Below the pieces are notes generated by a model that did no database searches, was not told the origin of the DNA, and was given only the letters and a program-made list of their open reading frames with translations. Positions 1-44,961 of a stretch of DNA of 56,682 nt are shown piece after piece. This DNA comes from a virus. Its lineage: Duplodnaviria > Caudoviricetes. Where the stretch lies: positions 1-56,682 of the IMG/VR virus record IMGVR_UViG_3300028780_000007. The stretch is one strand, 5' to 3'. Every line of letters begins with the position of its first letter. Position 1 is the stretch's first letter. The position numbers and the translations under genes were made by a program.

Positions 1-93
1 CTTAGCGGCAGCGCAACATCCGTTGCGAAGTGGGGCGCATTGGAAGCTGTCGACGCAATAAATGCCATGCTCCAAAAAACTTAGTACTAGTTC

Positions 94-122
94 TTGAAAA
101 ACAGCGAGCGTTGGAATAGAGT
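94..122 (+). promoter_or_regulatory. sigma70-like promoter with AAAACAGCGAGCG motif in spacer
   Basis: TTGAAA-17 nt-TAGAGT upstream of RBS AAGGAAGG and ORF 149. Confidence 0.55.
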
Positions 123-148
123 TCCATCTGAAAGGAAGGTGTCCATAT

Positions 149-1039
149 ATGGACGAATCGAAAGCACCGCTTCTTTACACCAGTTGGGCCTCTTTTGAAG
201 TAACCGAGTTCACATATTCCCAGGCAAACGACATGGCCAAATGCGGGATGTATTCCAAGCTCTCTCGCATTGAAGGTTGGACCGACATCCACGAGCGCGC
301 GACCATGCAGTTTGGCAACTGCATTGAGGCTGGCGTCCGCAACTACTACATGAATGGCATCGATCCGATCCAATCGTTCGCGGACGAATGGGCGCGCCGC
401 AAGAAGTGGAACCTCGAGTACAACAAGAAGTCCGGAGATTGGTCCGAGATGGACGGCCTCGGCCGGAACTTGATGACTCAATTGCTCGCCAGCGACGGAA
501 AGATCACCGGGGACGACATGCAGGAGCATTCTCTTCAGGGCTTCACGTTCAATGAGAAGCTGACGAAGCCTGATTGGTACAAGGGAACGCCGCTTGTGTA
601 CATCGCGGACGCGTACAAGCCGGGCGAGATCGTTATTGATATCAAATGTTTAGGCGCGAAACTTTCCGACGAAGATAAATTTAAGGGTTTCGTTGCCCTC
701 GACCCACAACTTCGTACTGGTGCGCTAGTGAGCGGGGCTCGCCGGGTAGGATTCATGAATTTCATCCGCACAAAAACGAATCCACGGATTCAATGGAAAG
801 AGGTAGCGGTCACCGAAGACTTGATCGTCGACATCGATCTTTGGTTAAAAGATCAATACGACAAATTGATGGGAAGAAAATTCCACCGCAACGCTGGGAT
901 TCGCTTTCCTTCTTCTCAGTGCACTTTTTGTTCCATGCTGCCGATCTGCACGAACAACGAGACGCTGGCAAAAGAAACGTTGCGCAGAAAAGAGGCGCGT
1001 GACACGGAAACTGAATTTTTGAGTCTTGATGATGATTGA
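149..1039 (+). CDS. PD-(D/E)XK nuclease (RecB/AddB/Cas4-like)
   Basis: 296 aa; E...YIAD...VIDIK catalytic motif, QL motif, N-terminal Cys plus C-terminal CxxCxxxxxC. Confidence 0.75.
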   Translation: MDESKAPLLYTSWASFEVTEFTYSQANDMAKCGMYSKLSRIEGWTDIHERATMQFGNCIEAGVRNYYMNGIDPIQSFADEWARRKKWNLEYNKKSGDWSEMDGLGRNLMTQLLASDGKITGDDMQEHSLQGFTFNEKLTKPDWYKGTPLVYIADAYKPGEIVIDIKCLGAKLSDEDKFKGFVALDPQLRTGALVSGARRVGFMNFIRTKTNPRIQWKEVAVTEDLIVDIDLWLKDQYDKLMGRKFHRNAGIRFPSSQCTFCSMLPICTNNETLAKETLRRKEARDTETEFLSLDDD

Positions 1040-1045
1040 TTTTGT

Positions 1046-1135
1046 GGTGAGTCATGCCAAGGCTGGGCCTGGTGGGTTCAGGTAAGGCGAGATTTGGCGA
1101 GCAGCGGTCAGGTAAGTTATGGCGTGGTAAGGTCA
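1046..1135 (+). repeat. phased GGY-NN pentamer tract 1 (18 units), candidate guide RNA
   Basis: Perfect 5-nt phase; all 18 units start with G and 12 are exactly GGC/GGT; last two bases vary. Confidence 0.85.
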
Positions 1136-1154
1136 AAAATCTAAAGGAGAATAA

Positions 1155-1772
1155 ATGGCAACAGCACCAGTAACAGAAATAAACAACGTTTCAAATGATG
1201 CGGAGTTTACGATCGACATGAGCGTGCCGTACACGGCGTTCATAAAGGTCAAGGGAGTTTCTCCGTTTATTTTCCATAGGTGGTCCGTTGAAGATGTTGC
1301 GGCAAAGGGAGCGGCAGCGAAGGGCTCGAAGGCCAAGAAGGAAGACAATCTCGAGTCGTACGTGTATCGCGATGCAAAAGGGATCCTTTCAATTCCGGGG
1401 GAATATTTCCGCATGTCGATTATTCATGCGGCACGGTACAAACAAGATCCTCGGTCGCCGCGAAAAAGTGCGATGGATCTTTTCAAGGCCGGCATTGCTG
1501 TTCTCGAAGAATACTGTCCGCTTGGTTTTAAGGAATGGGATTACGTTGATCGGCGTCGTGTGGTGGTACAAAGGAATGGGATCACGCGCGCTCGGCCAAC
1601 GATGCGAGAGGGATGGGAGTGCAAGGTTCAACTTGAGGTTTTAACGCCGGAATATATTAGTCAAGCGCTTTTGAACGAAACCGTCGCGATGGCTGGCCGA
1701 CTGATCGGCGTTGGAGATTTCCGTCCGAGTTTTGGAAGGTTTCAGGTTGTCGATTTCAAGACAACTAGATAA
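1155..1772 (+). CDS. stand-alone RAMP/Cas7-like protein (Vipr-like)
   Basis: 205 aa; RBS AAGGAG; N-terminal IKVKGVSPFIFH strand, LSIPGEYFR segment, RARP, C-terminal Gly-rich loop AGRLIGVGDFRPSFGRF typical of RAMPs. Confidence 0.75.
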   Translation: MATAPVTEINNVSNDAEFTIDMSVPYTAFIKVKGVSPFIFHRWSVEDVAAKGAAAKGSKAKKEDNLESYVYRDAKGILSIPGEYFRMSIIHAARYKQDPRSPRKSAMDLFKAGIAVLEEYCPLGFKEWDYVDRRRVVVQRNGITRARPTMREGWECKVQLEVLTPEYISQALLNETVAMAGRLIGVGDFRPSFGRFQVVDFKTTR

Positions 1773-1779
1773 GTTTTCT

Positions 1780-1974
1780 GGCGGGGCGTGGTAGGTCGTT
1801 GTGGGGCACGGTGTGTTGAGGTTAGCTTTGGCATGGTGCGGTTCGGTGAGGCCCGGTTAGGCCCGGTGTGGTTCTTTTGGGACTGGTCGAGTGAGCTTTG
1901 GAATGGTGAGTCCGGGCAAGGTACGGCATGGTCCGTTCGGGCGGGGCGTGCTTAGGAGCGGTATGGCGAGGTTA
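1780..1974 (+). repeat. phased GGY-NN pentamer tract 2 (39 units; two 19-unit halves split by TTTTG at 1875-1879)
   Basis: Unbroken 5-nt phase; 26 of 39 units are exactly GGY and most others differ by one base. Confidence 0.9.
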
Positions 1975-2040
1975 AATAAACGCAGAAAAGAGGGGAAAGA
2001 TACGGCCGACGAATTCGCAAGTTTGGACGAAGATTAGCCG

Positions 2041-2127
2041 ATGAGCGCCCTCGGAGCCGCTGCGGTCGTGCTGTTCGTGCTGGCGGTTGGCGGAGCGATT
2101 TACGCGATTGGACGGAGGGGCCGATGA
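2041..2127 (+). CDS. small membrane peptide
   Basis: 28 aa MSALGAAAVVLFVLAVGGAIYAIGRRGR; ATGA overlap with next gene. Confidence 0.45.
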   Translation: MSALGAAAVVLFVLAVGGAIYAIGRRGR

Positions 2128-2366
2128 CACTGACCGACACCCTAATCGGCGCGCTTGCTGCAACTATATTTGTAGCTTATTTCGTGGCGACGGGGGCTGT
2201 TCTGGAAAGATGGATAGAAGGCGCGTGGCCACATGGAACTGGCAATCATAACTATCTGAATACATCTGGAGCGTCGCTAGCACTCCACGTGTGTTTTGTG
2301 GCCTTTGTGATGGTGATCAATCTACTGGGACACTTCCTATACGAATTACTCCGGAGGGGCCGATGA
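2124..2366 (+). CDS. hypothetical membrane protein
   Basis: 80 aa, two hydrophobic segments, GGAGG RBS. Confidence 0.6.
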   Translation: MTLTDTLIGALAATIFVAYFVATGAVLERWIEGAWPHGTGNHNYLNTSGASLALHVCFVAFVMVINLLGHFLYELLRRGR

Positions 2367-2554
2367 GCCGGAAGCCGAAGTTTCGTCGAGGGCAAGTCGT
2401 TGCGACGAAAGATAGCTTGGAGTTTTTTGAGCTCGCGTCATGGTGGTATGGCCACGACGGTGAAATCCGCTGGGATATTACGCAGGACAGTGGAATCCAT
2501 ATCAAGGAAAGCGCGCTGCGCCCGCTGACGCGCCGCGAGAAGGGAGAAACCTAG
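2363..2554 (+). CDS. hypothetical protein
   Basis: Start re-called at coupled ATGA with GGAGG RBS; MSRKPKFRRGQVV. Confidence 0.6.
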   Translation: MSRKPKFRRGQVVATKDSLEFFELASWWYGHDGEIRWDITQDSGIHIKESALRPLTRREKGET

Positions 2555-2557
2555 CCG

Positions 2558-2950
2558 ATGACGCTGGAGCAGACCATTCAGGCAACGCTGGCCGCACACT
2601 ATCGCGTGATGAACGTGGTCGGAGACTTTTCTTCGTACCGCTGTGCGTGCGGCGCGGAGCCGTGGCTCAACTCGCATCTCGCCTCAGAACTCTCGAAGGC
2701 GGTCGAGGGGCAGCGGGAGTACACGCAGGATGACATGGACGAGGGGCGCACCGAGGCTCACGCAGCCGGATATAAATTAGCGGAGTCTACGCGGTGCGAG
2801 CGCGAAGCGGCAGCCGTTGCCTCACTGATTGTGGCGCTGCGGCGAATTCAGGACATGATACCTAACACGAAGATGACTGACGACGTTCATGCGGTGATTC
2901 GGCTTGCGCTAGCTGCGGAGTCCGAGCGGCTGCGGGGCGAGGCGAAATGA
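2558..2950 (+). CDS. hypothetical protein
   Basis: 130 aa, operonic, GGAG RBS. Confidence 0.6.
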   Translation: MTLEQTIQATLAAHYRVMNVVGDFSSYRCACGAEPWLNSHLASELSKAVEGQREYTQDDMDEGRTEAHAAGYKLAESTRCEREAAAVASLIVALRRIQDMIPNTKMTDDVHAVIRLALAAESERLRGEAK

Positions 2951-3237
2951 GCGAGACTAAGTCGCGTAATGTTTTGACCAAACGGCAGCGCGAGATTCTG
3001 ACGATCATGCGCGACAAAGACGAGGAGTTAATCTATGAGCACGGTCGCGGTTTCATTGGATGGTCATCCGTTGCCCCTCGAACTGTTTTTGCGCTGCTAC
3101 GGATGTGTGCGATTCATTCCGATTCAATGGACGACGTGTATTACCGTATCACGGGTACCGGCGTGAAGTTGCTGAACAACGACACGTCCGATCTGAAGCT
3201 GCTGGCCGAAGAGACATTGAAAGCGGTGCAGCCATGA
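2947..3237 (+). CDS. hypothetical protein, possible winged helix
   Basis: 96 aa; LTKRQREIL...YYRITGTG. Confidence 0.55.
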   Translation: MSETKSRNVLTKRQREILTIMRDKDEELIYEHGRGFIGWSSVAPRTVFALLRMCAIHSDSMDDVYYRITGTGVKLLNNDTSDLKLLAEETLKAVQP

Positions 3238-3434
3238 CCGAGCCAACACACGCAGAATTAGTCGCTGCTCTGCGTTGGGCGTTGCGTGAAGGGCAAAAAG
3301 GATTCCACACCGTATCGCAAGGCGACGCGATTTGGTATCACTGCCGGTTCTGTCATGCTGTCGCTCGCGACCCGAAGAAACTGAACCATGAAGATAGTTG
3401 CGAATACTATCACGTAAAAAGGATGGCGGTATGA
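3234..3434 (+). CDS. small Cys/His protein
   Basis: Coupled start MTEPT; CxxC...H...C. Confidence 0.55.
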   Translation: MTEPTHAELVAALRWALREGQKGFHTVSQGDAIWYHCRFCHAVARDPKKLNHEDSCEYYHVKRMAV

Positions 3435-3637
3435 CCGAGCCAACTGTGACGCAGCGCGAGCTGAAGCCGTGTCCATTTTGTGGGGGCGAAGCCTACAAGA
3501 CCGAGAGTGTTAACGGCGATAACATGGTCTACGTAGGCTGTGGGCCGTGTGGCATTCACTTCAAGGCCCAGAAGGACTGCACAAATGGCAAGCTAACGCG
3601 TGACGTGATTGCCGCGTGGAATCGGAGAAACTCGTGA
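3431..3637 (+). CDS. Lar-family restriction alleviation protein
   Basis: ELKPCPFCGGEA...CxxC...AAWNRR signature. Confidence 0.75.
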   Translation: MTEPTVTQRELKPCPFCGGEAYKTESVNGDNMVYVGCGPCGIHFKAQKDCTNGKLTRDVIAAWNRRNS

Positions 3638-4107
3638 CCGAATACGAAGACGCTATCAGGCTGGCGAATCACATCCTTGATAGACCAAGCGGTGACCCAG
3701 ATGACGATTTGGCGGTTTTGTCGCGACAATTTCTACGCGCATTGGAGCGTGTCGAGCGTATCCGTGCCGAGGCCGAGGCAGCGATCCTGTTGGCGGCGGC
3801 TGACCGATGTGAAGCTTGGGCTATCAAGAATTACATGGATGATTTTGGTAGTTTCGTAGCGCGCAATGTGGCCGTCAACCTACGCGATGAAATCAAGGCC
3901 CTGCAATCCCCCGACGCCGCTGCCGCACTCACGCGACGGGACGCGGAGACACGGCTGGACGAAGGGCTAACTTGGTTCGAGCACGTTATCAGCTATCTGA
4001 AGCCAGCGGCGAACTCTTGGGACGACTGCGACCACACAACGTGGGCCAAGAACCGCATGGATACACTCACCCGCCAACTGGAGGCGCTCGATGCAAAGAA
4101 TGTGTGA
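3634..4107 (+). CDS. hypothetical protein
   Basis: GTGA-coupled start; LDRPSGDPDDDLAVLSRQFLR. Confidence 0.6.
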   Translation: MTEYEDAIRLANHILDRPSGDPDDDLAVLSRQFLRALERVERIRAEAEAAILLAAADRCEAWAIKNYMDDFGSFVARNVAVNLRDEIKALQSPDAAAALTRRDAETRLDEGLTWFEHVISYLKPAANSWDDCDHTTWAKNRMDTLTRQLEALDAKNV

Positions 4108-4351
4108 GAAGTGCCGGGTCGATTACGATGACGCCGACTGTTCGACGATCTGTCCTCACAGTCAGATTATGTCGGATGAAAACTTGAAGCAGAAGAAGGC
4201 CGCGATCGAGCTATTTGGCCACGACGTGTGCTTTGCGCACGAGCCGAATGGCAAGCGGTATCACATCCAGGCAATGGGCTGGAACGGGATGCTCACGCTT
4301 GTTGGGATGTCCGGGGAATTCGCTCCGCATCTGTTTGTTAAAGCAAAATGA
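4091..4351 (+). CDS. small Cys-rich hypothetical protein
   Basis: 86 aa, CEKC...CPH, GGAGG RBS. Confidence 0.55.
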   Translation: MQRMCEKCRVDYDDADCSTICPHSQIMSDENLKQKKAAIELFGHDVCFAHEPNGKRYHIQAMGWNGMLTLVGMSGEFAPHLFVKAK

Positions 4352-4455
4352 CGGCCGAAGAAATCACGTTTGTTTGGGTAATTGGAATAACTTGTGGTTT
4401 CGTCGGCCTTATAATTGGCGGCGTGATCGGCTACCACATAAAGAAGTGGGGATGA
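4348..4455 (+). CDS. small single-TM peptide
   Basis: 35 aa, ATGA overlaps at both ends. Confidence 0.5.
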   Translation: MTAEEITFVWVIGITCGFVGLIIGGVIGYHIKKWG

Positions 4456-5336
4456 AGATGAAGAACAGCGAACGATTACTGCGGTACGTGAACAAACGTC
4501 CAGATATGGACGTTTTGCCGCCGCGGCCTGGCGACAAGGTGGACGTCGTAGAGTTCTACGTGCGTCAGCTAAAGCTGCACAAGCCATTGGACATTCCGGA
4601 TCTTGTGTTGTCGAGGATGATATTGCATTCTTCGGGGTTGTGGGTATCCGAACGCAAGTCACTTGAGCTTACCGATCTTGCCCAGTTTCCAGTACCGCAG
4701 ATGCCACAATCCGGTTTTTTGTTTAGTATTGGTTCGGCCACTCCGTCTATGGTGTGGACGGGTGTTGACGAAGCAGAAAAGAATCCCATCCCTCCGGACT
4801 CTGCGTCATTTGAAATGAATCTGACCGAGGCGCTGGTTGGATGGCGAGTTTGGCATGTCGGTCGCGATGGATTTTTGCGATCGATTTATGCGCACAACGG
4901 TAAATTTAAGGCGAAATGGATGCCCGACGTACCGATGGAGTCAGCGTGCAAACACAACCATGAAGTCCCTGCCGAGTTCTGTCAGTGTGGCGTGTACGCC
5001 AGCGATTCTCGAGAGGAGGCCGAAGATCGGATAGTGGATCATGGGATTATTTTAATCGTTGGCGAGGTCTACGGTTGGGGTCGTTACGTCCGCGGCGACA
5101 GTGGATGGCGTGCGCAGTACGCGTATCCGAAAGCGTTTCACGTTGGTCGCGAAAGTTTTTCACCAGATGTCTTTGATAATTTGCGGCAATACCATGTCCC
5201 CGTTTACGTTGATCAGCCCACGTTGTTTTATAACCCGGAGGATGACGGATATGAAAATCGGCAAGAAGACACGTACGGGAATAGCGGAACCGATCCGGAG
5301 CCCGATGCCGGTGAAAGCGCCGGCGAAGACGCCTGA
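4452..5336 (+). CDS. hypothetical phage protein with Cys/His cluster
   Basis: Start re-called at coupled ATG; GWRVW...CKHNH...CQCGVYA...GWRAQYAYP. Confidence 0.65.
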   Translation: MKMKNSERLLRYVNKRPDMDVLPPRPGDKVDVVEFYVRQLKLHKPLDIPDLVLSRMILHSSGLWVSERKSLELTDLAQFPVPQMPQSGFLFSIGSATPSMVWTGVDEAEKNPIPPDSASFEMNLTEALVGWRVWHVGRDGFLRSIYAHNGKFKAKWMPDVPMESACKHNHEVPAEFCQCGVYASDSREEAEDRIVDHGIILIVGEVYGWGRYVRGDSGWRAQYAYPKAFHVGRESFSPDVFDNLRQYHVPVYVDQPTLFYNPEDDGYENRQEDTYGNSGTDPEPDAGESAGEDA

Positions 5337-5379
5337 AAAGGTTCCGACCGAGGCCGTGAAAGTCTTGAAGATAGTTTGA
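5251..5379 (+). CDS. small Pro-rich peptide overlapping the end of the previous gene
   Basis: GGAGG RBS; MKIGKKTRTGIAEPIRSPMP. Confidence 0.4.
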   Translation: MKIGKKTRTGIAEPIRSPMPVKAPAKTPEKVPTEAVKVLKIV

Positions 5380-5389
5380 AAAGGAGACG

Positions 5390-5719
5390 GTGATGAAAGT
5401 AGCGCTTGTTATTGTCGTGGCGGTTATATTTCTTTACGGAATCGGTTTCTTGATGACCGGAGGAGATCTGGTCATTTACCGATTCTGGGCGCCTAAACAG
5501 GAGAACGCGAAGCGCGTAGTGTTCGAGAACACGCAGAGCTACGTGCAGGGTAAACAAGAATACCTCTCACGTCTTTGCCAACAGTATAGGGACACCGCTT
5601 CAGCCGACCAGAAGGCTTCTCTGCGGACGATGATCTTGGATGAAGCTTCAACCGTAGACAACTCGAAATTATCTGGCAGCGTGCCGGCGTGCATTAACGC
5701 ATTGGGTGGTGGTCAATGA
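5390..5719 (+). CDS. membrane-anchored hypothetical protein
   Basis: N-terminal TM, RVVFENTQSYVQG, AAGGAG RBS. Confidence 0.7.
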   Translation: MMKVALVIVVAVIFLYGIGFLMTGGDLVIYRFWAPKQENAKRVVFENTQSYVQGKQEYLSRLCQQYRDTASADQKASLRTMILDEASTVDNSKLSGSVPACINALGGGQ

Positions 5720-6240
5720 AGTTAGGGATGATTGCGCTGCTTTTTGCGATGTGGTTGGGACAGCAAGGAAGCAGTTGCGACGATGCAACCCCGCCTTCAG
5801 ATAAAGCGCAAAGGGATCAGCAAGAGCAATTGAGCAACGAAAGTAACCGGCAGGTGGGAATGCCGGGGATCACCAACTTCACCGAGAAGAAAATTGTTCG
5901 CAAGCTTTACGAATTGCGGGACCAGAACATCGCTACGCACACTTATGTCATGGATCTGAATGGCAGATTATTTCATGTCTGCGAATCGATCGGGTATGGG
6001 CTGCCTTATGGTGTGCAGTTTTCAAACCCGGATAAAGTAATCCAGAGTTACAGTTCGTCCTTTGGCGCTATCCCGCAGTCGGAGCCCAACGGTTTGTTCA
6101 TGCCGCCGACCGCTGAAGGTACCTGGGTAATTTGTGCGAGTCACGAAAAGGCCGGCGACATAGCTCCGGTTTATGTTGAGCCGCGAGTTATTGTCAGTCC
6201 GTTTAAGTTGAAAGCAGTAGGTGAGTGGCAGGAACAATGA
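5716..6240 (+). CDS. putative secreted protein or lipoprotein
   Basis: Signal-like N-terminus with Cys; SIGYGLPYGVQFSNP, EPNGLF, GTWVIC motifs. Confidence 0.7.
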   Translation: MKLGMIALLFAMWLGQQGSSCDDATPPSDKAQRDQQEQLSNESNRQVGMPGITNFTEKKIVRKLYELRDQNIATHTYVMDLNGRLFHVCESIGYGLPYGVQFSNPDKVIQSYSSSFGAIPQSEPNGLFMPPTAEGTWVICASHEKAGDIAPVYVEPRVIVSPFKLKAVGEWQEQ

Positions 6241-6357: not shown

Positions 6358-6783
6358 GTGAATCAATTTACAACTAAGGTTTTACTTTGGTACAGCATGA
6401 TGTACGGGTGTTTCAAGACACTACCGAATAAGGAAAAGAAAGCTCTCGAAAGATGGGAAACCTTCAACGGTTGTACATCTGATTGGCCCGGCTGGGAGAA
6501 ATACATTGGTAAGCGGCCGGCGCCGCCTCCTTGCGTAAAAATAAAAACAGCGTTCGTTTCATCGCACCTGAAGCTTTTAATTTTCAAACGCGACGGCTAT
6601 AAGTGCGTGTGGTGTTCCTCGGCAGTTGATCTGGTACCCGATCATATCGTTCCGAGCTCCCGTGGCGGCCCAACCACGATCGACAACCTTCGGACTCTTT
6701 GCGCAAAATGCAACAATTCCAAAGGCAGAAGGCTCGATAGTGAGATGAAAAAAGGGGGCGCGCGTGAGCTCGAAGGACGTTAA
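6358..6783 (+). CDS. HNH endonuclease
   Basis: RDGYKCVWC...DHIVPSSRGG...NLRTLCAKCN; GTG start after GGAGG. Confidence 0.85.
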   Translation: MNQFTTKVLLWYSMMYGCFKTLPNKEKKALERWETFNGCTSDWPGWEKYIGKRPAPPPCVKIKTAFVSSHLKLLIFKRDGYKCVWCSSAVDLVPDHIVPSSRGGPTTIDNLRTLCAKCNNSKGRRLDSEMKKGGARELEGR

Positions 6784-7747
6784 AAAGAACCTTTTGCCGT
6801 GGCTAGATCGCCCTGTTTCCTTCCATCGAATCCTCGCTAAAGCGTGCGGCGACGTCGCATCTGGACTCTTTCTCTCGCAGTGTATTTACTGGCAGTACGT
6901 GGTGCTCCCGGCGATGCCGGACGAGAAGAAAAACAAGCACCAACTCGAAGGCTGGTTCTATAAGACCCGCGAGGAATGGCGTGAGGAGACGTGTCTTAGC
7001 CGTCGAGAGCAGGAGGGCGCCCGCAAGAATCTGAGAAGCTTGGGGTTCTTGGAAGAAATGCTCGCCGACGTCCCTGCTAAACTCTATTTTCGGGTTAATC
7101 TTGAGGCTCTAAACATAGCTTTTGATCCCACCAACTTGCAGGGCGGAAACGTACCAACAAGGGAGCTCGATACGGACCAGCAAGAAGGTACTGAACGTAC
7201 CAGCAAGGAGGCTCAAAACGAGCCACCATTTAGTTCTTCAGAGAGTACCTCAGAGAGTGCGCCAGAGATTTCTCGCAGCGCCCCCCGAAGAAATAGAAAC
7301 TCACCCCCCCAAGGGGGTAAGTTTCTTACACCTTCTCAAGAAACCAGCAGCGAGGAAGACCTCAACAGCTTAGACGAGCCCCAGGCGGCGCCGGCGAACC
7401 CGGAGGAGTACGAGGGGGTGGACTTGCGGTTCTCGCAGGACATCGTGGCCTGGATGCGGGACGCGGCCGGGGTGTGCGGGAAGCACTGGAAGCACGGAGG
7501 GAAGCGCGGCAATAAGGGGCCGCATAAGGCCATGGAGTCGCCGATCAGGGAGAAAGAGCGGTTTGTGGGGCGGCGCAACTTTCGGTCGTGGTGGGTGGAT
7601 TTCTTGCGGTCGCCGCAAAGCGATGAGCCGATGTACCCGTACGGGGCATTCTTGGAGGGGCCGTACCAGGTTCGATTGAACCAGTTGCCGCCAGATCCAG
7701 CAGATGCACCGCCTGAAATTCCGGGAGCGAATGATCCGTTCGTGTGA
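6764..7747 (+). CDS. phage replication initiator (N-terminal winged HTH)
   Basis: LFLSQCIYW...GWFYKTREEWREETCLSRREQEGARK...PAKLYFRVN; low-complexity middle containing iterons. Confidence 0.7.
   Translation: MSSKDVKKNLLPWLDRPVSFHRILAKACGDVASGLFLSQCIYWQYVVLPAMPDEKKNKHQLEGWFYKTREEWREETCLSRREQEGARKNLRSLGFLEEMLADVPAKLYFRVNLEALNIAFDPTNLQGGNVPTRELDTDQQEGTERTSKEAQNEPPFSSSESTSESAPEISRSAPRRNRNSPPQGGKFLTPSQETSSEEDLNSLDEPQAAPANPEEYEGVDLRFSQDIVAWMRDAAGVCGKHWKHGGKRGNKGPHKAMESPIREKERFVGRRNFRSWWVDFLRSPQSDEPMYPYGAFLEGPYQVRLNQLPPDPADAPPEIPGANDPFV
7149..7209 (+). repeat. putative replication origin iterons, 3 copies at 23-bp period
   Basis: ACG(T/G)ACCA(A/G)CAAG at 7149, 7172, 7195. Confidence 0.6.
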
Positions 7748-26784: not shown

Positions 26785-27525
26785 GTGGAATTGGCTTATA
26801 AGAGAGTGGCACATTTCAAGAGATCGGCAACGTTGGAGGAGCGGTATTGGAACCACGTAATCAAGAACGGGGAGGGGTGCTGGGGGTGGGTGGGGAGCAC
26901 GCGGCTGGGGTACGGGAAGTTCATGTACGAGGGAAAGTGGATTTACGCGAGCCGATTCAGTTTAGAGAGGAAACTTGGGAGGAGGTTGAGGAAGGGGAAG
27001 TTGGCATTACACGAGTGCGATAATCCGCCGTGTTCGAAGCCTGAGCATTTGTACGAGGGGACGCACAAGAACAACGCGGATGATGCAATAAAGCGGGGGC
27101 GCTGGTCGAGGAGAGCGAATTTGACCGAGAAGCAGGTTTTAGAGATTCGGAAGATGCGTAGTCAGGGGATGAGATCGATTGAGATTTCAAGGGCGCTTGG
27201 GATTTCGTACGGGAATGTTTATGGTGTGGTGACAGGTCGGACGTGGAAGGAATTGGGACCGGTCAAGGCTGGAAAACGGAGATCGGTGGGCAAGAAATCA
27301 GAAACTAAATTTCGTTGTGTAGAGTGCGGAAAGATTTCTACTGGGAGGATACCGCACTCTGGTTGGATGCAGGGAGATTTGACTTTCCGATATCCGCGTC
27401 GGCATTTGGTGAATGGGGAACCGTGTCCGGGAATGTTGAAGGAGGCGGAGTGGGTAAGGGTAAGGGTTAGGGTGACGATCGAGATAAGAAAAGCGAAGAA
27501 AGGGGTGGTCGATGGAACCAAATGA
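26785..27525 (+). CDS. HNH homing endonuclease with HTH
   Basis: CWGWVGS...GYG...LHECDNPPCSKPEHLYEGTHKNNADD; LTEKQVLEIR HTH. Confidence 0.85.
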   Translation: MELAYKRVAHFKRSATLEERYWNHVIKNGEGCWGWVGSTRLGYGKFMYEGKWIYASRFSLERKLGRRLRKGKLALHECDNPPCSKPEHLYEGTHKNNADDAIKRGRWSRRANLTEKQVLEIRKMRSQGMRSIEISRALGISYGNVYGVVTGRTWKELGPVKAGKRRSVGKKSETKFRCVECGKISTGRIPHSGWMQGDLTFRYPRRHLVNGEPCPGMLKEAEWVRVRVRVTIEIRKAKKGVVDGTK

Positions 27526-28096: not shown

Positions 28097-28263
28097 CCAG
28101 AACGCTAAAGGAAATCATTAAGGAAGCGGTGATCGGCGCCATGCTCGACGCGGAAAACAACGTGGCCAAGGCTGCGCGGATCTTGGGGGTCGGCCGGGCG
28201 ACCGTGTACCGGAGGCTCAAGGAATACGGGATGCTCAAAAGGAACGTGAGGTCGATTCGATAA
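28093..28263 (+). CDS. Fis-type HTH protein
   Basis: NVAKAARILGVGRATVYRRLKEYG. Confidence 0.8.
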   Translation: MTRTLKEIIKEAVIGAMLDAENNVAKAARILGVGRATVYRRLKEYGMLKRNVRSIR

Positions 28264-30011
28264 TGAGTTACATCGTGCTCGGAAAATCGGGAGCGCATAA
28301 CGCGAAGCTTGATATCGACATCTTGCTTCGCACGCGCCTTCTCATTCAGGCCAATTCCGGTGGTGGCAAATCCTATTTGCTGCGGAGAATTGCCGAGCAA
28401 CTCTTCGGGAAAGTCCCCGTTATCATCATCGATCCGGAAGGTGAGTTCGCCACGCTGCGCGAGAAGTTTGGGTTTGTTTTGGTCGGCAAAGGTGGCGAGA
28501 CACCGGCAGACCCGCGGTCCGCGGCGCTTGTAGCTCATAAGCTACTCGAGCTCCGCGCCTCCGCGGTGTGCGATTTGTACGAGATGAAGCCTTCGGAGCG
28601 GCATCGGTGGGTGCGATTGTTCGCTGAAGCGATTGTGGACGCACCAAAAAAGCTGTGGCGGCCGACGATTTTCATCGTGGATGAGGTTCACACGTTCGCT
28701 CCAGAGCGCGGCGCCGGCGAGAGTGAAGCGTCGGAAGCGCTAATTGGGATGGCCACGCGCGGCCGGAAACGGCGTTTTTGCTCGATTTGGGCTACGCAGA
28801 GGCTTGGGAAAGTCCGGAAGGACGCTACCGCGGAGTTCTTGAATCGCCTCGTTGGGTCGACGTTTGAGGACGTCGACTTGAAGCGTGCGGCTGAATTGCT
28901 GAGTATTCGTCCAGAAGATCGGCGCGAGTTCGATGCTGAGATGCGCGTGCTGGAGCCTGGCAATTTCTACGGGCTCGGTCGAGCGATCGCGAAAGAGCGG
29001 ATTTTGATTCACATTGGCCCGGTTGAAACGAGCCATGAAGTTGAGGATGCGAAGTACGGCGATGCGCCGCCCCCGGCACCGGATGAAATCCAGAAGCTTT
29101 TGCCGAAGCTGGCGGACTTGCCGAAGGAAGCCGAGGAGAAGGCGAAGACCGAGGCGGAATTGCGTACAGAGATTCGATCTCTCAAAGCGCAGTTGCGTAG
29201 TCAGCCGACCCATAAAATTGAAACGAAGCAGCCTGACAATTCGCAGTGGAATGAAATACAAAGGTACAAGGCTGGCGAAGCTCATCACAAAAAAGAATTC
29301 GAGGATTTATTGAGCATCACGCGGCAAGTCGTAAACGGCGTGGGGCAACTTTCGGTGCTGGCAAGTGAATTGGCAAGAATGAGGATTCCTAAGAGGTTCA
29401 ATATTCCCCGATCGTCAAATTTGCCGAAGGTAAGAGTTTCTAGTGATGATCCACCAAAGCCGTCGCCGCTTCCTCCGCTGCCGAAGCTTGAGAAGTTTCC
29501 GCCAATTGAGCGGGATGCGTCGAACGGAGATTTGGGTGGACCGGAGAAAAAGATTCTTCGCGCACTCTCCGAACTGCGCTCGATCGGGAAAGAAACTCCG
29601 CCGAAAGAAATGGTTGCAGCTTGGGCTTTGTATTCGCCGAACGGTGGGGCGTTTGTGAATCCGCTCGGGAAACTGCGGACACTCGGGCTTGTGGAGTATC
29701 CGGCGCCGGGAGTTGTTTCTCTTACAGCTAGCGGACTTTCCACCATCGGAGAGATTCCGCCGCCTGATTCCGAAGAGATTATGCGGAGGCTTCAGAGTAT
29801 TTGCAGTGGCCCTGAGTGGAAAATCCTCTATGCGCTATTCAAGGAAAGTGGCCAAGAGGAAGTGTCGCGTGCGGATCTCGCGATGCGGAGCGGGTACGAA
29901 GTAAAAGGCGGAGCGTTCGTAAATCCTTTGGGCGCGTTGCGGACCAAGGGGATACTCGATTACCCGCGGCCGGGATTTGTGAAAGCCGCAGATTGGATCT
30001 TCGTGGAATGA
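28263..30011 (+). CDS. HerA-like (DUF87) ATPase with C-terminal winged-helix repeats
   Basis: QANSGGGKS, IIDPEGEF, IVDEVH, ATQR; two GGAFVNPLG repeats. Confidence 0.85.
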   Translation: MSYIVLGKSGAHNAKLDIDILLRTRLLIQANSGGGKSYLLRRIAEQLFGKVPVIIIDPEGEFATLREKFGFVLVGKGGETPADPRSAALVAHKLLELRASAVCDLYEMKPSERHRWVRLFAEAIVDAPKKLWRPTIFIVDEVHTFAPERGAGESEASEALIGMATRGRKRRFCSIWATQRLGKVRKDATAEFLNRLVGSTFEDVDLKRAAELLSIRPEDRREFDAEMRVLEPGNFYGLGRAIAKERILIHIGPVETSHEVEDAKYGDAPPPAPDEIQKLLPKLADLPKEAEEKAKTEAELRTEIRSLKAQLRSQPTHKIETKQPDNSQWNEIQRYKAGEAHHKKEFEDLLSITRQVVNGVGQLSVLASELARMRIPKRFNIPRSSNLPKVRVSSDDPPKPSPLPPLPKLEKFPPIERDASNGDLGGPEKKILRALSELRSIGKETPPKEMVAAWALYSPNGGAFVNPLGKLRTLGLVEYPAPGVVSLTASGLSTIGEIPPPDSEEIMRRLQSICSGPEWKILYALFKESGQEEVSRADLAMRSGYEVKGGAFVNPLGALRTKGILDYPRPGFVKAADWIFVE

Positions 30012-42304: not shown

Positions 42305-42925
42305 ATGCGAGGAAAGGGCAGAACCGCGGTTACGACGAAGCGCGATGCGCTTGCGGTTCGTGACAAGATTCGCAACGTCGACAAAGAGCCGATTCATCGT
42401 TATCGGTTGACGCGCTTTCGGAATGGTTCGAAGCTCGACGCGATCGCCACGGAAGATAACTGTTCCATGGAGGATGTCAAGAAGTCGATCGCCATGGTGC
42501 AGACGCACGACGCGATATTCAGCGTTCCAGCGCTCGAGAATGCCGAAGTGAAGATGTTTTTGGATGTTTTGGAGTTGGAGCGCAAGGCGCTCGAGGGCGC
42601 GCTCACGGCCACAAAGAAGGTATTTGCGGAAGTCAGCGATCCGGATACAGGTGAAAAGACGTTGGAACTGGCGAGCGAGGAGCCAGATTACGATACTCAG
42701 CTTCGGTGTTTCGAGGCTAATACTGGTCGGATTGCCTCCATCATGGGGAAGAAGGACAAGGGGGCGCCGATCAATTTGGGCATTGGGGTGACGGTCAACA
42801 ACGAATCTTCATCTTCGAGAGACAGTTTCGAAAGCCGCTTGCGCGATATTCAGGCTCGACGTGCTGGCGGCGGAACTGTCATCGAAGCTACTGCGGTGGA
42901 GGGGGACGGCAACGAGTCTCCCTAG
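42305..42925 (+). CDS. putative terminase small subunit
   Basis: Directly upstream of the large subunit; N-terminal HTH-like segment. Confidence 0.5.
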   Translation: MRGKGRTAVTTKRDALAVRDKIRNVDKEPIHRYRLTRFRNGSKLDAIATEDNCSMEDVKKSIAMVQTHDAIFSVPALENAEVKMFLDVLELERKALEGALTATKKVFAEVSDPDTGEKTLELASEEPDYDTQLRCFEANTGRIASIMGKKDKGAPINLGIGVTVNNESSSSRDSFESRLRDIQARRAGGGTVIEATAVEGDGNESP

Positions 42926-44961
42926 TGCGCCTTAATCGCAAAGATCCATATCTGGACGATGCGCTCGAATTGCTGGATCGCCATATCGAGAAGGCCAATG
43001 GCGATTTCCGGCTGGCGTATACCTTTCTTACTCCGCACGAATTAGTTTTCATCGACGGCGAGATTGAGAAATGTGTTTCAAACTTCCGCTACTACGCTGA
43101 AAATTACCACGTTATCGCTTCGGAATATGAAGGCCACAAAGTTCTCCATCCTTGGTGGGATAGTCAAGAAATCTTCTATGAAAAAGTTTTCGAGATTCAA
43201 ATTGCAGGGAAACCGGTTCGCATTATCGTTCTGAAAGCGCGTCAGCTTGGCCTGTCCACAATTTGCCAAGCGCTTACTTTCCACAAAACGATTTTCACGC
43301 CTAGTTGTAATACTTTGATCATCGCGCAGGATCCTGGACAAGCCGACTATCTCTTTAGCATGTCTCGTACGGCGTACGAAAGTTTGCCGTGGTGGATGCG
43401 GCCAGAAACCCGTTACGAAGCCAAGTCAAGGTATATGGTCTTCGATCGCAAGGATCCTACTGAGCGCATGATGAGTCCTGGATTGCGATCGCAGATTTTC
43501 GTCGATGCGGCCAACAAAATGACTGGTGCTGCCGTTGGAAAAACTATCCGTGCGGTTCACATGAGCGAGTTGAGTGAATGGGACAATGCCTCGATTTTGA
43601 CCGAGAACCTTTTCCCGACCATGAACGCACCTGATGAATTGGCAATCATGGAGTCTACGGCGCGCGGAACCGTTGGTTTTTGGTACAGGTTTTGGAAGTC
43701 GGCGATGGAGGGAAAGACCGACTGGCAACCAGTTTTCATTGAGTTTTTCCGGGTTAAGAAATATTCGACTTCAATTCCGGCCGGCGAGAAATTTGAGCTT
43801 ACGCCGGAAGAGGTTGCGCTTCGCGGGAAGGTTAAGAAAGAAGCAAACTTTGATTTGGCTGACGAGCAACTCAAGTGGCGTCGAGACAAGATCAACGAGT
43901 TCATTGCGGCTGATGGGGAAGAATGGGGATTCTATCAGGAGTATCCGGGCGCCACATGGCTCGAGGCGTTTCAGGGCAGTGGTTTGTGTGCTTTTGACAA
44001 AAGGAAGCTTCAGACAATGCTCGAGACGCAGTGTTGCCCTCCGATTTTGTTTGGTGAAATTGATTTGGACCGAGAAAAAGACGGAAAGCTTCGGCCTCAC
44101 CTAAAGGCCATGCGCAAGGTTGACAGGAACACGCTTATTCCGCCGCAAGAAAACTACGGATCAAGGCTTCACATCTGGGAGAAACCGATAGCTGGGGAAA
44201 GATATTCTATCGGAGCCGACGTCGCCCAGGGAATTCTGGGTGGCAATTATTCTTGTGCCCAGGTTTTCAAGATCGGCAAAGGAATGAAAAAAGACGAACA
44301 GGTCGCCGAATGGCATGGGTTAATCAACCCAACGCCGTACGCTTCCGTTCTTGCTGGGCTTGGTTTTTATTACAACACCGCTGAAATCGCCGTCGAGTGC
44401 AACAACGACGTTGGCGGAACGACCAACAACCAATTGTTGCGTGTGATCGAATACCCGAATATGTTCCGGTGGAAGCACTACGACAAGATCAAGAATTACT
44501 TCTCCGACTTCATGGGCTGGTACACCAATTCCAAGACTCGCGGTCAGATCATCACAAAGATGCGGGAGAGCATCAGCGACGGGACGATTATAATTCGCAG
44601 CGAGGCTATGATTGAGGAAATGCGGAACTTCGCTAGGGAAGAGGGAGAGCGAAGGTATGAGGGTCAGGGGACCGACGACGACCGTGTAATGTCCGGGATG
44701 ATTTGTATTTTCTGCCCGCACGATATGGATTGGGGCGTGGACAAGACCGAATCGGAGGAAGAGGACGAAGAGACGATCCGGAAAAGGAAGAGAGAGGATT
44801 ACATCAACACCGATTACGCGCCGGCTTTCGAGGGGTCGAGGAAGAAGAACCTTCCGCCAGGGAAAGCACAGTTGCCCAGCGAGCTTGGTTTGCCGACAGA
44901 TATGACCACTTCGCAGATTCGTTCCGATGTGCCCGAAGAAGATCAGTGGAAGCTTCTTTAG
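42925..44961 (+). CDS. terL: terminase large subunit
   Basis: IIVLKARQLGLST, HMSE, MESTARG, QEYP, IGADVAQG, VECNN, DDRVMS. Confidence 0.92.
   Translation: MRLNRKDPYLDDALELLDRHIEKANGDFRLAYTFLTPHELVFIDGEIEKCVSNFRYYAENYHVIASEYEGHKVLHPWWDSQEIFYEKVFEIQIAGKPVRIIVLKARQLGLSTICQALTFHKTIFTPSCNTLIIAQDPGQADYLFSMSRTAYESLPWWMRPETRYEAKSRYMVFDRKDPTERMMSPGLRSQIFVDAANKMTGAAVGKTIRAVHMSELSEWDNASILTENLFPTMNAPDELAIMESTARGTVGFWYRFWKSAMEGKTDWQPVFIEFFRVKKYSTSIPAGEKFELTPEEVALRGKVKKEANFDLADEQLKWRRDKINEFIAADGEEWGFYQEYPGATWLEAFQGSGLCAFDKRKLQTMLETQCCPPILFGEIDLDREKDGKLRPHLKAMRKVDRNTLIPPQENYGSRLHIWEKPIAGERYSIGADVAQGILGGNYSCAQVFKIGKGMKKDEQVAEWHGLINPTPYASVLAGLGFYYNTAEIAVECNNDVGGTTNNQLLRVIEYPNMFRWKHYDKIKNYFSDFMGWYTNSKTRGQIITKMRESISDGTIIIRSEAMIEEMRNFAREEGERRYEGQGTDDDRVMSGMICIFCPHDMDWGVDKTESEEEDEETIRKRKREDYINTDYAPAFEGSRKKNLPPGKAQLPSELGLPTDMTTSQIRSDVPEEDQWKLL

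Follow-up and report, generated by a model that had tools for sequence, protein, structure and literature searches.

Organization of the locus

We examined a 56,682-nt stretch of viral DNA (IMG/VR record IMGVR_UViG_3300028780_000007, positions 1–56,682; hereafter, "the window"), which is the complete virus record (56,682 bp) of a tailed phage from peat soil. Near its left end, the gene of a 205-aa RAMP (Cas7-like) protein lies between two tracts that repeat a GGY-NN unit in strict 5-nt phase (Table 1). This arrangement is that of VIPR (Viral Interference Programmable Repeat), a system first described in 2026, in preprints, in which a RAMP protein, Vipr, is combined with RNAs (vrRNAs) that alternate GGY and NN and address a gapped target (10.64898/2026.04.26.720920). 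An initial annotation, made from the sequence alone, had singled out the open reading frame (ORF) and the two tracts and had matched them to VIPR. Its coordinates proved exact, including the division of the second tract by TTTTG into 19 + 19 units, and the match was right, since the architecture described in that preprint is the one found here.

Table 1. Features of the candidate VIPR cassette and its borders in the window
Feature	Position	Strand	Remark
PD-(D/E)XK (RecB/Cas4-like, PDDEXK_1) nuclease gene, 296 aa	149..1039	+	upstream neighbour of the cassette
Left copy of 57-nt imperfect direct repeat	983..1039	+	last 19 codons and stop of the nuclease gene; local alignment
T-run leader TTTTGT	1040..1045	+	directly 5' of tract 1; putative boundary signal
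Candidate vrRNA1, 18 GGY-NN units	1046..1135	+	36 guide-specifying bases; ends 19 nt before the vipr start codon
Shine-Dalgarno-like AAGGAG of vipr	1144..1149	+	sequence reading
vipr, 205-aa single-RRM RAMP (Cas7-like) protein	1155..1772	+	between the tracts
T-run leader GTTTTCT	1773..1779	+	5' of tract 2
Candidate vrRNA2, 19 units	1780..1874	+	38 guide-specifying bases; unit reading
TTTTG spacer unit, in phase	1875..1879	+	presumed vrRNA2/vrRNA3 boundary
Candidate vrRNA3, 19 units	1880..1974	+	38 guide-specifying bases; unit reading
Right copy of direct repeat	1981..2037	+	stranded in-frame nuclease 3'-end remnant with its own stop; local alignment

In the tract upstream of vipr (1046–1135), position 1 of the five-base unit is G in 18/18 units, and GG and the complete GGY each occur in 12/18; for the 39 units of the downstream tract (1780–1974), the corresponding counts are 36/39, 29/39, and 26/39. 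Unit 20 of the downstream tract is the TTTTG spacer, and all four bases occur at unit positions 4–5 in both tracts. A T-run precedes every candidate vrRNA (TTTTGT, GTTTTCT, and TTTTG, respectively). Both tracts lie on the vipr strand, and the phase is unbroken over the 195 nt of the second. Within the latter, the autocorrelation of G was +0.41, +0.50, and +0.50 at lags of 5, 10, and 15, respectively, and −0.26 at a lag of 3. When the window was scanned for in-phase GG (6/8), the two tracts were the only calls on either strand; under a first-order Markov null, thirty simulations gave a mean of 0.47 short calls and a maximum of 2. A G-rich region at 26855–26928, within the gene of an HNH endonuclease, was called solely once the threshold was relaxed and was rejected as a tract. 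As the initial annotation had held, the tracts are not a simple tandem repeat: Tandem Repeats Finder called just a 25-nt fragment of them.

The Vipr protein

No match to the Vipr protein of the window was found in Pfam, NCBIfam, or PADLOC, and in PHROGs it matches an unannotated family (phrog_4652, E 3e-16). Its sole match among 177,635 PDB sequences was 36pp_D, the "SUSP1 Vipr protein," with an E-value of 7.8e-5 over the C-terminal third when the single sequence was used, and of 1.2e-10 with a 36-sequence profile, positions 29–199 of which aligned with chain residues 5–188. The Gly-rich motif GVGDFRPSFGRF, which had been taken from the outset for the C-terminal loop of a RAMP protein, aligns with the G-loop of this solved protein. 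In SUSP1, GGY is reported to be contacted by H17, E71/M72, R138, D177, W178, and R179 (10.64898/2026.04.26.720927). The profile alignment places H41, E83, Y84, R147, D188, F189, and R190 of the window protein opposite SUSP1 H17, E71, M72, R138, D177, W178, and R179, respectively; the 36 clade members show no variation at H41, E83, R147, D188, F189, and R190 and almost none at Y84. Judged by this alignment, the GGY-gripping residues of the G-loop and thumb are kept in the window Vipr.

An AlphaFold model of the protein (pLDDT 85.6, pTM 0.80) matched 126 PDB chains at E ≤ 0.001 in Foldseek, with type VII Cas7, Cas7-11, and Csm3 at the top, in agreement with the RAMP/Cas7 fold that had been proposed. 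Identity to the Cas7-family RAMPs of class 1 effectors (type VII Cas7, Csm3, Cmr4, and Cas7-11) is 10–15%. VIPR advances in steps of 5 nt, with three bases sequestered and a non-contiguous guide, whereas Cas7 effectors advance in steps of 6 nt with one base flipped. The genomic setting also differs from that of class 1 CRISPR effectors, because the window has no CRISPR array and no other cas genes. No CRISPR-like array was detected in the window, and PADLOC recognized 0 Cas families among 104 window ORFs; the set that defines class 1 CRISPR-Cas (an array, cas1/cas2, and further effector subunits) is thus missing from the window, and the earlier statement that there is neither a CRISPR array nor cas1, cas2, or cas3 stands.

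Linkage of vipr and tracts among relatives

The Vipr family comprised 5,255 proteins at E ≤ 0.001 among 5,353 candidates, and the best non-self match was 72% identical. Viral contigs yielded relatives at 377 places, 80 of which were retained as loci; metagenome contigs yielded them at 33 places, giving 31 loci scored for tracts; and one-per-species genomes yielded them at 81 places, 80 of which were retained. The genome relatives belong to Acidobacteriota (the best, at 62% identity), Planctomycetota, Proteobacteria, Bacillota, Actinomycetota, Cyanobacteria, and others. When linkage was defined as a phased tract on the same strand within 400 nt of the gene, adjoining tracts were found in 179/191 loci of the three collections. 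The counts were 76/80 for viral loci, 29/31 for metagenome loci (both misses are cut at the gene), and 74/80 for genome loci, or 63/64 of the genome loci in which the gene is whole and both flanks are present. Tract coverage in the viral loci was 31% within the ±400-nt flanks, compared with 0.5% for the remainder of the locus and 0.1% on the opposite strand. Run on the phiSUSP1 locus as a positive control, the script returned one tract upstream and three downstream of vipr-vap in that locus, where small-RNA sequencing is reported to have found one vrRNA upstream and three downstream (10.64898/2026.04.26.720920).

Across 320 runs from 81 loci, unit positions 1–5 carried 1.47, 0.79, 0.43, 0.01, and 0.00 bits of information, respectively, the values at positions 1–3 being partly built in because run detection demanded a G at position 1. 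We also compared close relatives, using 20 flank alignments of 18 locus pairs with vipr at least 85% identical; one locus (L046) was paired with both L055 and L056, which have identical alignment rows, so that this comparison was counted twice. Mismatches at unit positions 1–5 amounted to 22/498, 57/493, 149/487, 186/491, and 160/493 (0.044, 0.116, 0.306, 0.379, and 0.325), and those outside the tracts in the same alignments to 536/3543 (0.151). In other words, close relatives differ at the NN positions approximately 3 to 8 times as often as at the two G positions. Homologues thus have adjoining tracts with a conserved GG(Y) and a variable NN, as the initial annotation had anticipated.

The start and end logos of the runs were flat. 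No clear motif marked the last units, or the bases after them, of 319 run ends (272 array-terminal and 47 internal), and the commonest last unit, GGTTT, accounted for 15/272 array-terminal ends. In the long arrays of some relatives (L014, L018, and others), the 5-nt phase is frequently displaced by a single base, such as after GGTTT. These one-base shifts resemble the "staggered" overlapping vrRNA arrays described in 10.64898/2026.04.26.720920; the window tracts have no such shift. Furthermore, a single 343,696-bp contig of a cyanobacterial metagenome-assembled genome (L097/L098 and L123/L124) carries two vipr copies approximately 100 kb apart, both 56% identical to the query, and the tract positions are the same in L097 and L098. 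The pair may represent a duplicated prophage region.

These data bear on whether the tracts are guides at all. They might instead encode Gly/Arg/Val-rich peptides (ORFs 1788–1955 and 1891–2037) or form a G-rich structure, such as two-tetrad G-quadruplexes; open frames do cross the tracts, similar pseudo-ORFs occur in 23 and 12 of 81 relatives, and, as a matter of general knowledge, GG every 5 nt suits a two-tetrad quadruplex motif. However, the constraint has a period of 5 and not 3, as the negative autocorrelation at lag 3 indicates, and unit positions 4–5 carry practically no information (0.01 and 0.00 bits). The recurring "ORFs" appear on both strands, as expected of frames that read through a repeat. 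Moreover, the tracts accompany vipr on its own strand in 179/191 loci, and the residues by which GGY is held in the solved complex are retained in their partner protein. We therefore regard a non-guide role of the tracts as scarcely credible.

Comparison with described VIPR systems

The preprint 10.64898/2026.04.26.720920 lists 667 systems and distinguishes seven types, all with GGY/NN vrRNAs. It takes as the repeat criterion adjoining tandem YNNGG or GGY-NN of at least 4 units and describes internal vrRNA degeneracy as frequent; loci have "typically" two genes, some are stand-alone, and vap is not universal. A further 2026 preprint treats satellite competition (10.64898/2026.10.15.759431), and a language-model survey, also a 2026 preprint, recovers 99 VIPR-like clusters. 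The locus in the window combines the features by which VIPR is defined, that is, a RAMP with a G-loop and thumb, adjoining GGY/NN repeats, and a viral, non-CRISPR context. Because VIPR was already published in 2026, we regard the locus as a further member of a known system.

The experimentally studied relative is the type II system SUSP1 of Escherichia phage phiSUSP1 (PDB 36pp). Its protein, too, is a small RAMP with a single RRM, and the two proteins agree in G-loop motif and GGY-contact residues; the loci also share GGY-NN tracts on both sides of the gene and on the gene strand, a T-run before the first unit, a phage host, and the lack of cas genes. In contrast, vap1 follows vipr in SUSP1, a leader is conserved, and each vrRNA bears a conserved tail of approximately 40 nt, and the window locus has none of the three; the SUSP1 tail and leader are detectable with the same script that was used on the window. 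Adjoining guides in the window are set apart by a single 5-nt T-run, unlike those of SUSP1, and the distance from the upstream tract to the vipr start is 19 nt here, at the ribosome-binding site, compared with 96 nt in SUSP1. The locus therefore departs from the type II form (SUSP1/P. fulva), as it has no invariant structured tail and no vap1, and its guides are of 18–19 units. Hammerhead ribozymes, shown between vrRNAs for VIPR types I and V, are also absent here: no Rfam family matched window 1–6000 at E ≤ 1, and there is therefore no hammerhead ribozyme in that interval. By sequence, the clade of the window is distant from the studied SUSP1 system.

The nearest protein from a GenBank phage is that of phage DSL-LC04 (OR003939.1; L081), with 55% identity over 99% of the query; it is annotated as a "helix-turn-helix transcriptional regulator," in a record without VIPR annotation. 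As in the window, phased GGY-NN tracts lie upstream of the gene, in a 320-nt gap (2180–2500). Unlike the window, DSL-LC04 has an overlapping downstream gene (3115–3558) for a Lys-rich 147-aa protein, a possible vap, and its upstream tracts are broken by an 11-nt inverted repeat that encloses approximately 60 nt and by a terminator-like hairpin.

Accessory genes, targets, and expression

Neighbour ORFs were compared among loci in a search for a vap gene. Among the 11 neighbour ORFs of the window, nine had no match in the 80 viral loci and two had one weak, short match each. When neighbours were clustered across 81 loci, the only clusters present in more than 5 of them were pseudo-ORFs reading through the tracts. 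The Lys-rich downstream protein was present in 4/81 loci, as well as in phage DSL-LC04, and is a possible vap.

For the target scan, guides in 1-nt-skip form were compared with both strands of the window, of 81 loci, and of a further 34 (1.58 Mb in all). The best match, 25/36 (69%), fell inside the range of shuffled guides (maxima of 24–26) and under the published bar of 80%. Skips of 0, 2, and 3 and 12-unit sub-guides gave nothing above shuffled guides in the same sequence. Against the phage genome itself, the guides matched at best 61–63% of NN positions; in this respect, the locus is like the systems that 10.64898/2026.04.26.720920 describes, which are without self-targeting. RNA-library contigs of three runs (X22–X24) covered window positions 1315–1554 and 1627–1780, and those of X23 also covered 2049–2284 and 2333–2483.

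Several of these results, together with others from the locus, weigh against a working cassette of the SUSP1 kind. No natural target was found in the 1.58 Mb scanned, and none of the 11 window neighbour ORFs recurs beside vipr in the 80 viral loci, that is, a vap gene was not found among them. The RNA-library contigs extend over portions of the vipr coding region and of the genes downstream but miss the tracts, although such contigs cannot show small RNAs and may hold DNA, and are thus uninformative on the tracts either way. No promoter-like site was found on the plus strand between 123 and 4000; the sole plus-strand sigma-70-like site in 1–4000, a consensus match only, is at 94–122, 5' of the nuclease gene. 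A conserved structured 3' tail, as on SUSP1 vrRNAs, was not found, the three 3' ends having no common sequence, and the three tract RNAs fold no better than shuffles (z of −1.07, −0.69, and +0.38). The 18–19 units per guide exceed the 9–16 reported for the studied SUSP1 and P. fulva clades. Vipr is only approximately 24% identical to SUSP1 Vipr, so that the mechanism is carried over a long distance. Finally, the full GGY is present in just 38/57 units and position-1 G in 54/57. The early description of a near-constant GGY with a free NN therefore held for NN, which uses all four bases, and not for GGY; the near-invariant feature of the tracts is the G at position 1 and not the whole motif.

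The absence of the full GGY from 19/57 units could also mean that the cassette is a decaying or idle remnant, in which the gene is intact while the guides erode and direct nothing. The lack of a target in the scanned sequence, of a tail, and of vap would fit such decay, as would the stranded gene fragment that adjoins the cassette (see below) and suggests a recent rearrangement. However, the ORF is whole and every tested residue is invariant across 36 relatives, and internal degeneracy of vrRNAs is frequent according to 10.64898/2026.04.26.720920. Position-1 G persists in 54/57 units with the phase unbroken over 195 nt, two further assemblies of this phage carry the locus without a single base change, and the target scan spanned just 1.58 Mb. 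A remnant thus appears very improbable.

Another possibility concerns the output. The upstream run ends within 30 nt of the predicted vipr start in 26/59 loci with an upstream run (window included), and the position of the tract end, at the Shine-Dalgarno site of vipr, may couple the loading or processing of guides to translation of the gene. A VIPR-type ribonucleoprotein could bind or cut RNA, or regulate the expression of its own phage through vrRNA1, which abuts the ribosome-binding site and stops 19 nt short of the start codon. The top structural matches (type III Csm3, type VII Cas7, and Cas7-11) are all RNA-targeting effector subunits, the clade is approximately 24% identical to the only studied protein, and there is no vap gene, while vap1 is reported to strengthen defence in SUSP1 (10.64898/2026.04.26.720920). 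Against this, the six residues with which the DNA-silencing SUSP1 protein contacts GGY are all kept, all seven VIPR types of the same preprint use GGY/NN vrRNAs, and the self-match of the guides in the phage genome never exceeds 63%. We consider such an output improbable.

Proposed mode of action

Weighing these points, we read window 1040–1980 as a minimal VIPR cassette with one vipr gene and three candidate vrRNAs (18 units upstream; 19 + 19 downstream), likely acting by gapped-guide silencing of the SUSP1 type, and assign to this reading a probability of about 0.88. By analogy with SUSP1, the tracts would be transcribed, probably within the surrounding early operon, and Vipr protomers would polymerise on the RNA, one for each 5-nt unit. 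Each GGY would be held by the RRM sheet, thumb, and G-loop, leaving the NN pairs exposed. The initial annotation had proposed one subunit per GGY displaying NN; cryo-electron microscopy is reported to show this for SUSP1, with one protomer per repeat and NN displayed (10.64898/2026.04.26.720927), and for the window locus it follows by homology. The NN pairs would read double-stranded DNA with one base skipped per unit (every third base), and the footprint would be 54–57 bp, with 36, 38, and 38 bases specified by the three guides. As in SUSP1, the bound filament would then keep a competitor, whether phage, satellite, or prophage, from being transcribed. For the window locus, we infer that the tracts are transcribed and the RNA processed at the T-runs, that this gives three guides of 90–95 nt, that these address DNA, and that silencing results.

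A direct repeat at the borders of the cassette

The 941-bp cassette (1040–1980) sits between the two copies of an imperfect direct repeat, which are 37/55 identical (versus 1981–2035) and share an exact 13-mer at their start. The alignment score of 19 compares with a maximum of 16 in 600 mismatched-locus controls. The left copy is the present end of the nuclease gene, and the right copy appears to be a stranded remnant of such an end. The peptide encoded by the right copy agrees at 16/18 positions with the C-terminus of an 88%-identical nuclease homologue (P0121), compared with 13/18 for the present end of the gene. The right copy is therefore closer to the homologue, a hint that the cassette may have brought with it a foreign replacement for the end of the nuclease gene. 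Among 78 loci tested, a flank repeat above the controls was seen in the window locus only. Flank duplication as a general rule was rejected: three other loci (L044, L048, and L054) score 16, the control maximum, and look like GC-rich chance similarity.

The nuclease itself had an Atlas feature score of 0.97, with 29/30 matches in the PF12705 set and a structural TM of 0.80, and gave no match to Pfam, PHROG, or PDB sequences. No relative of it was found in viral contigs, and it was present in 0/80 related vipr loci. Because it is not co-conserved with vipr, it is probably a phage recombination gene rather than a vap gene.

The features of the locus could also be drawn together in a more tentative scenario, namely a stripped-down form of VIPR without vap, tail, or ribozyme, in which guides of 18–19 units are separated by nothing but short T-runs in a read-through phage operon. 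Since the upstream guide ends at the vipr ribosome-binding site, as in 26/59 loci with an upstream run, Vipr that loads on the leader of its own gene could both free the guide and hold down vipr translation. Judging by the duplicated end of the nuclease gene, the 941-bp unit may in turn pass between phages as a cassette and supply a new 3' end to the gene that it enters. As a whole, this scenario is doubtful.

Genomic context

The phage gene set includes a replication initiator, primase/helicase, UvsX-like recombinase, two HNH endonucleases, terminase, portal, and major head protein. Across the window, G is enriched on the plus strand (G 0.297, C 0.237), which carries 77/119 mechanically chosen ORFs. 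At 7147–7220, inside the lambda-O-like replication initiator gene (6764–7747), a 23-nt unit is repeated 3.2 times, and these repeats are candidate origin iterons. Two large proteins (28263–30011 and 42925–44961) both match terminase-large-subunit families, and the first additionally matches HerA-like ATPase models in PADLOC.

Two contigs, L082 and L083, are other assemblies of the same phage. The cassette is base-for-base identical in both, and they are therefore uninformative on NN turnover. L082 reaches 1,346 nt upstream of window position 1 and is 99.5% identical up to position 2372, after which the two are mosaic; the VIPR cassette is located just left of this recombination breakpoint between L082 and the window.

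Implications

The locus provides an environmental example of VIPR, from a peat phage, for a system that has so far been studied mainly in enterobacterial and Pseudomonas phages. The divergent Vipr clade to which it belongs is very common, with 377 viral-contig places and members in the genomes of many phyla. Such loci are still missed by routine annotation, as the regulator label on the close GenBank phage homologue indicates. If the guides work without a tail or vap, the cassette would be a programmable DNA-binding unit even smaller than the published one. The natural targets of the guides would reveal the competing elements of peat communities.

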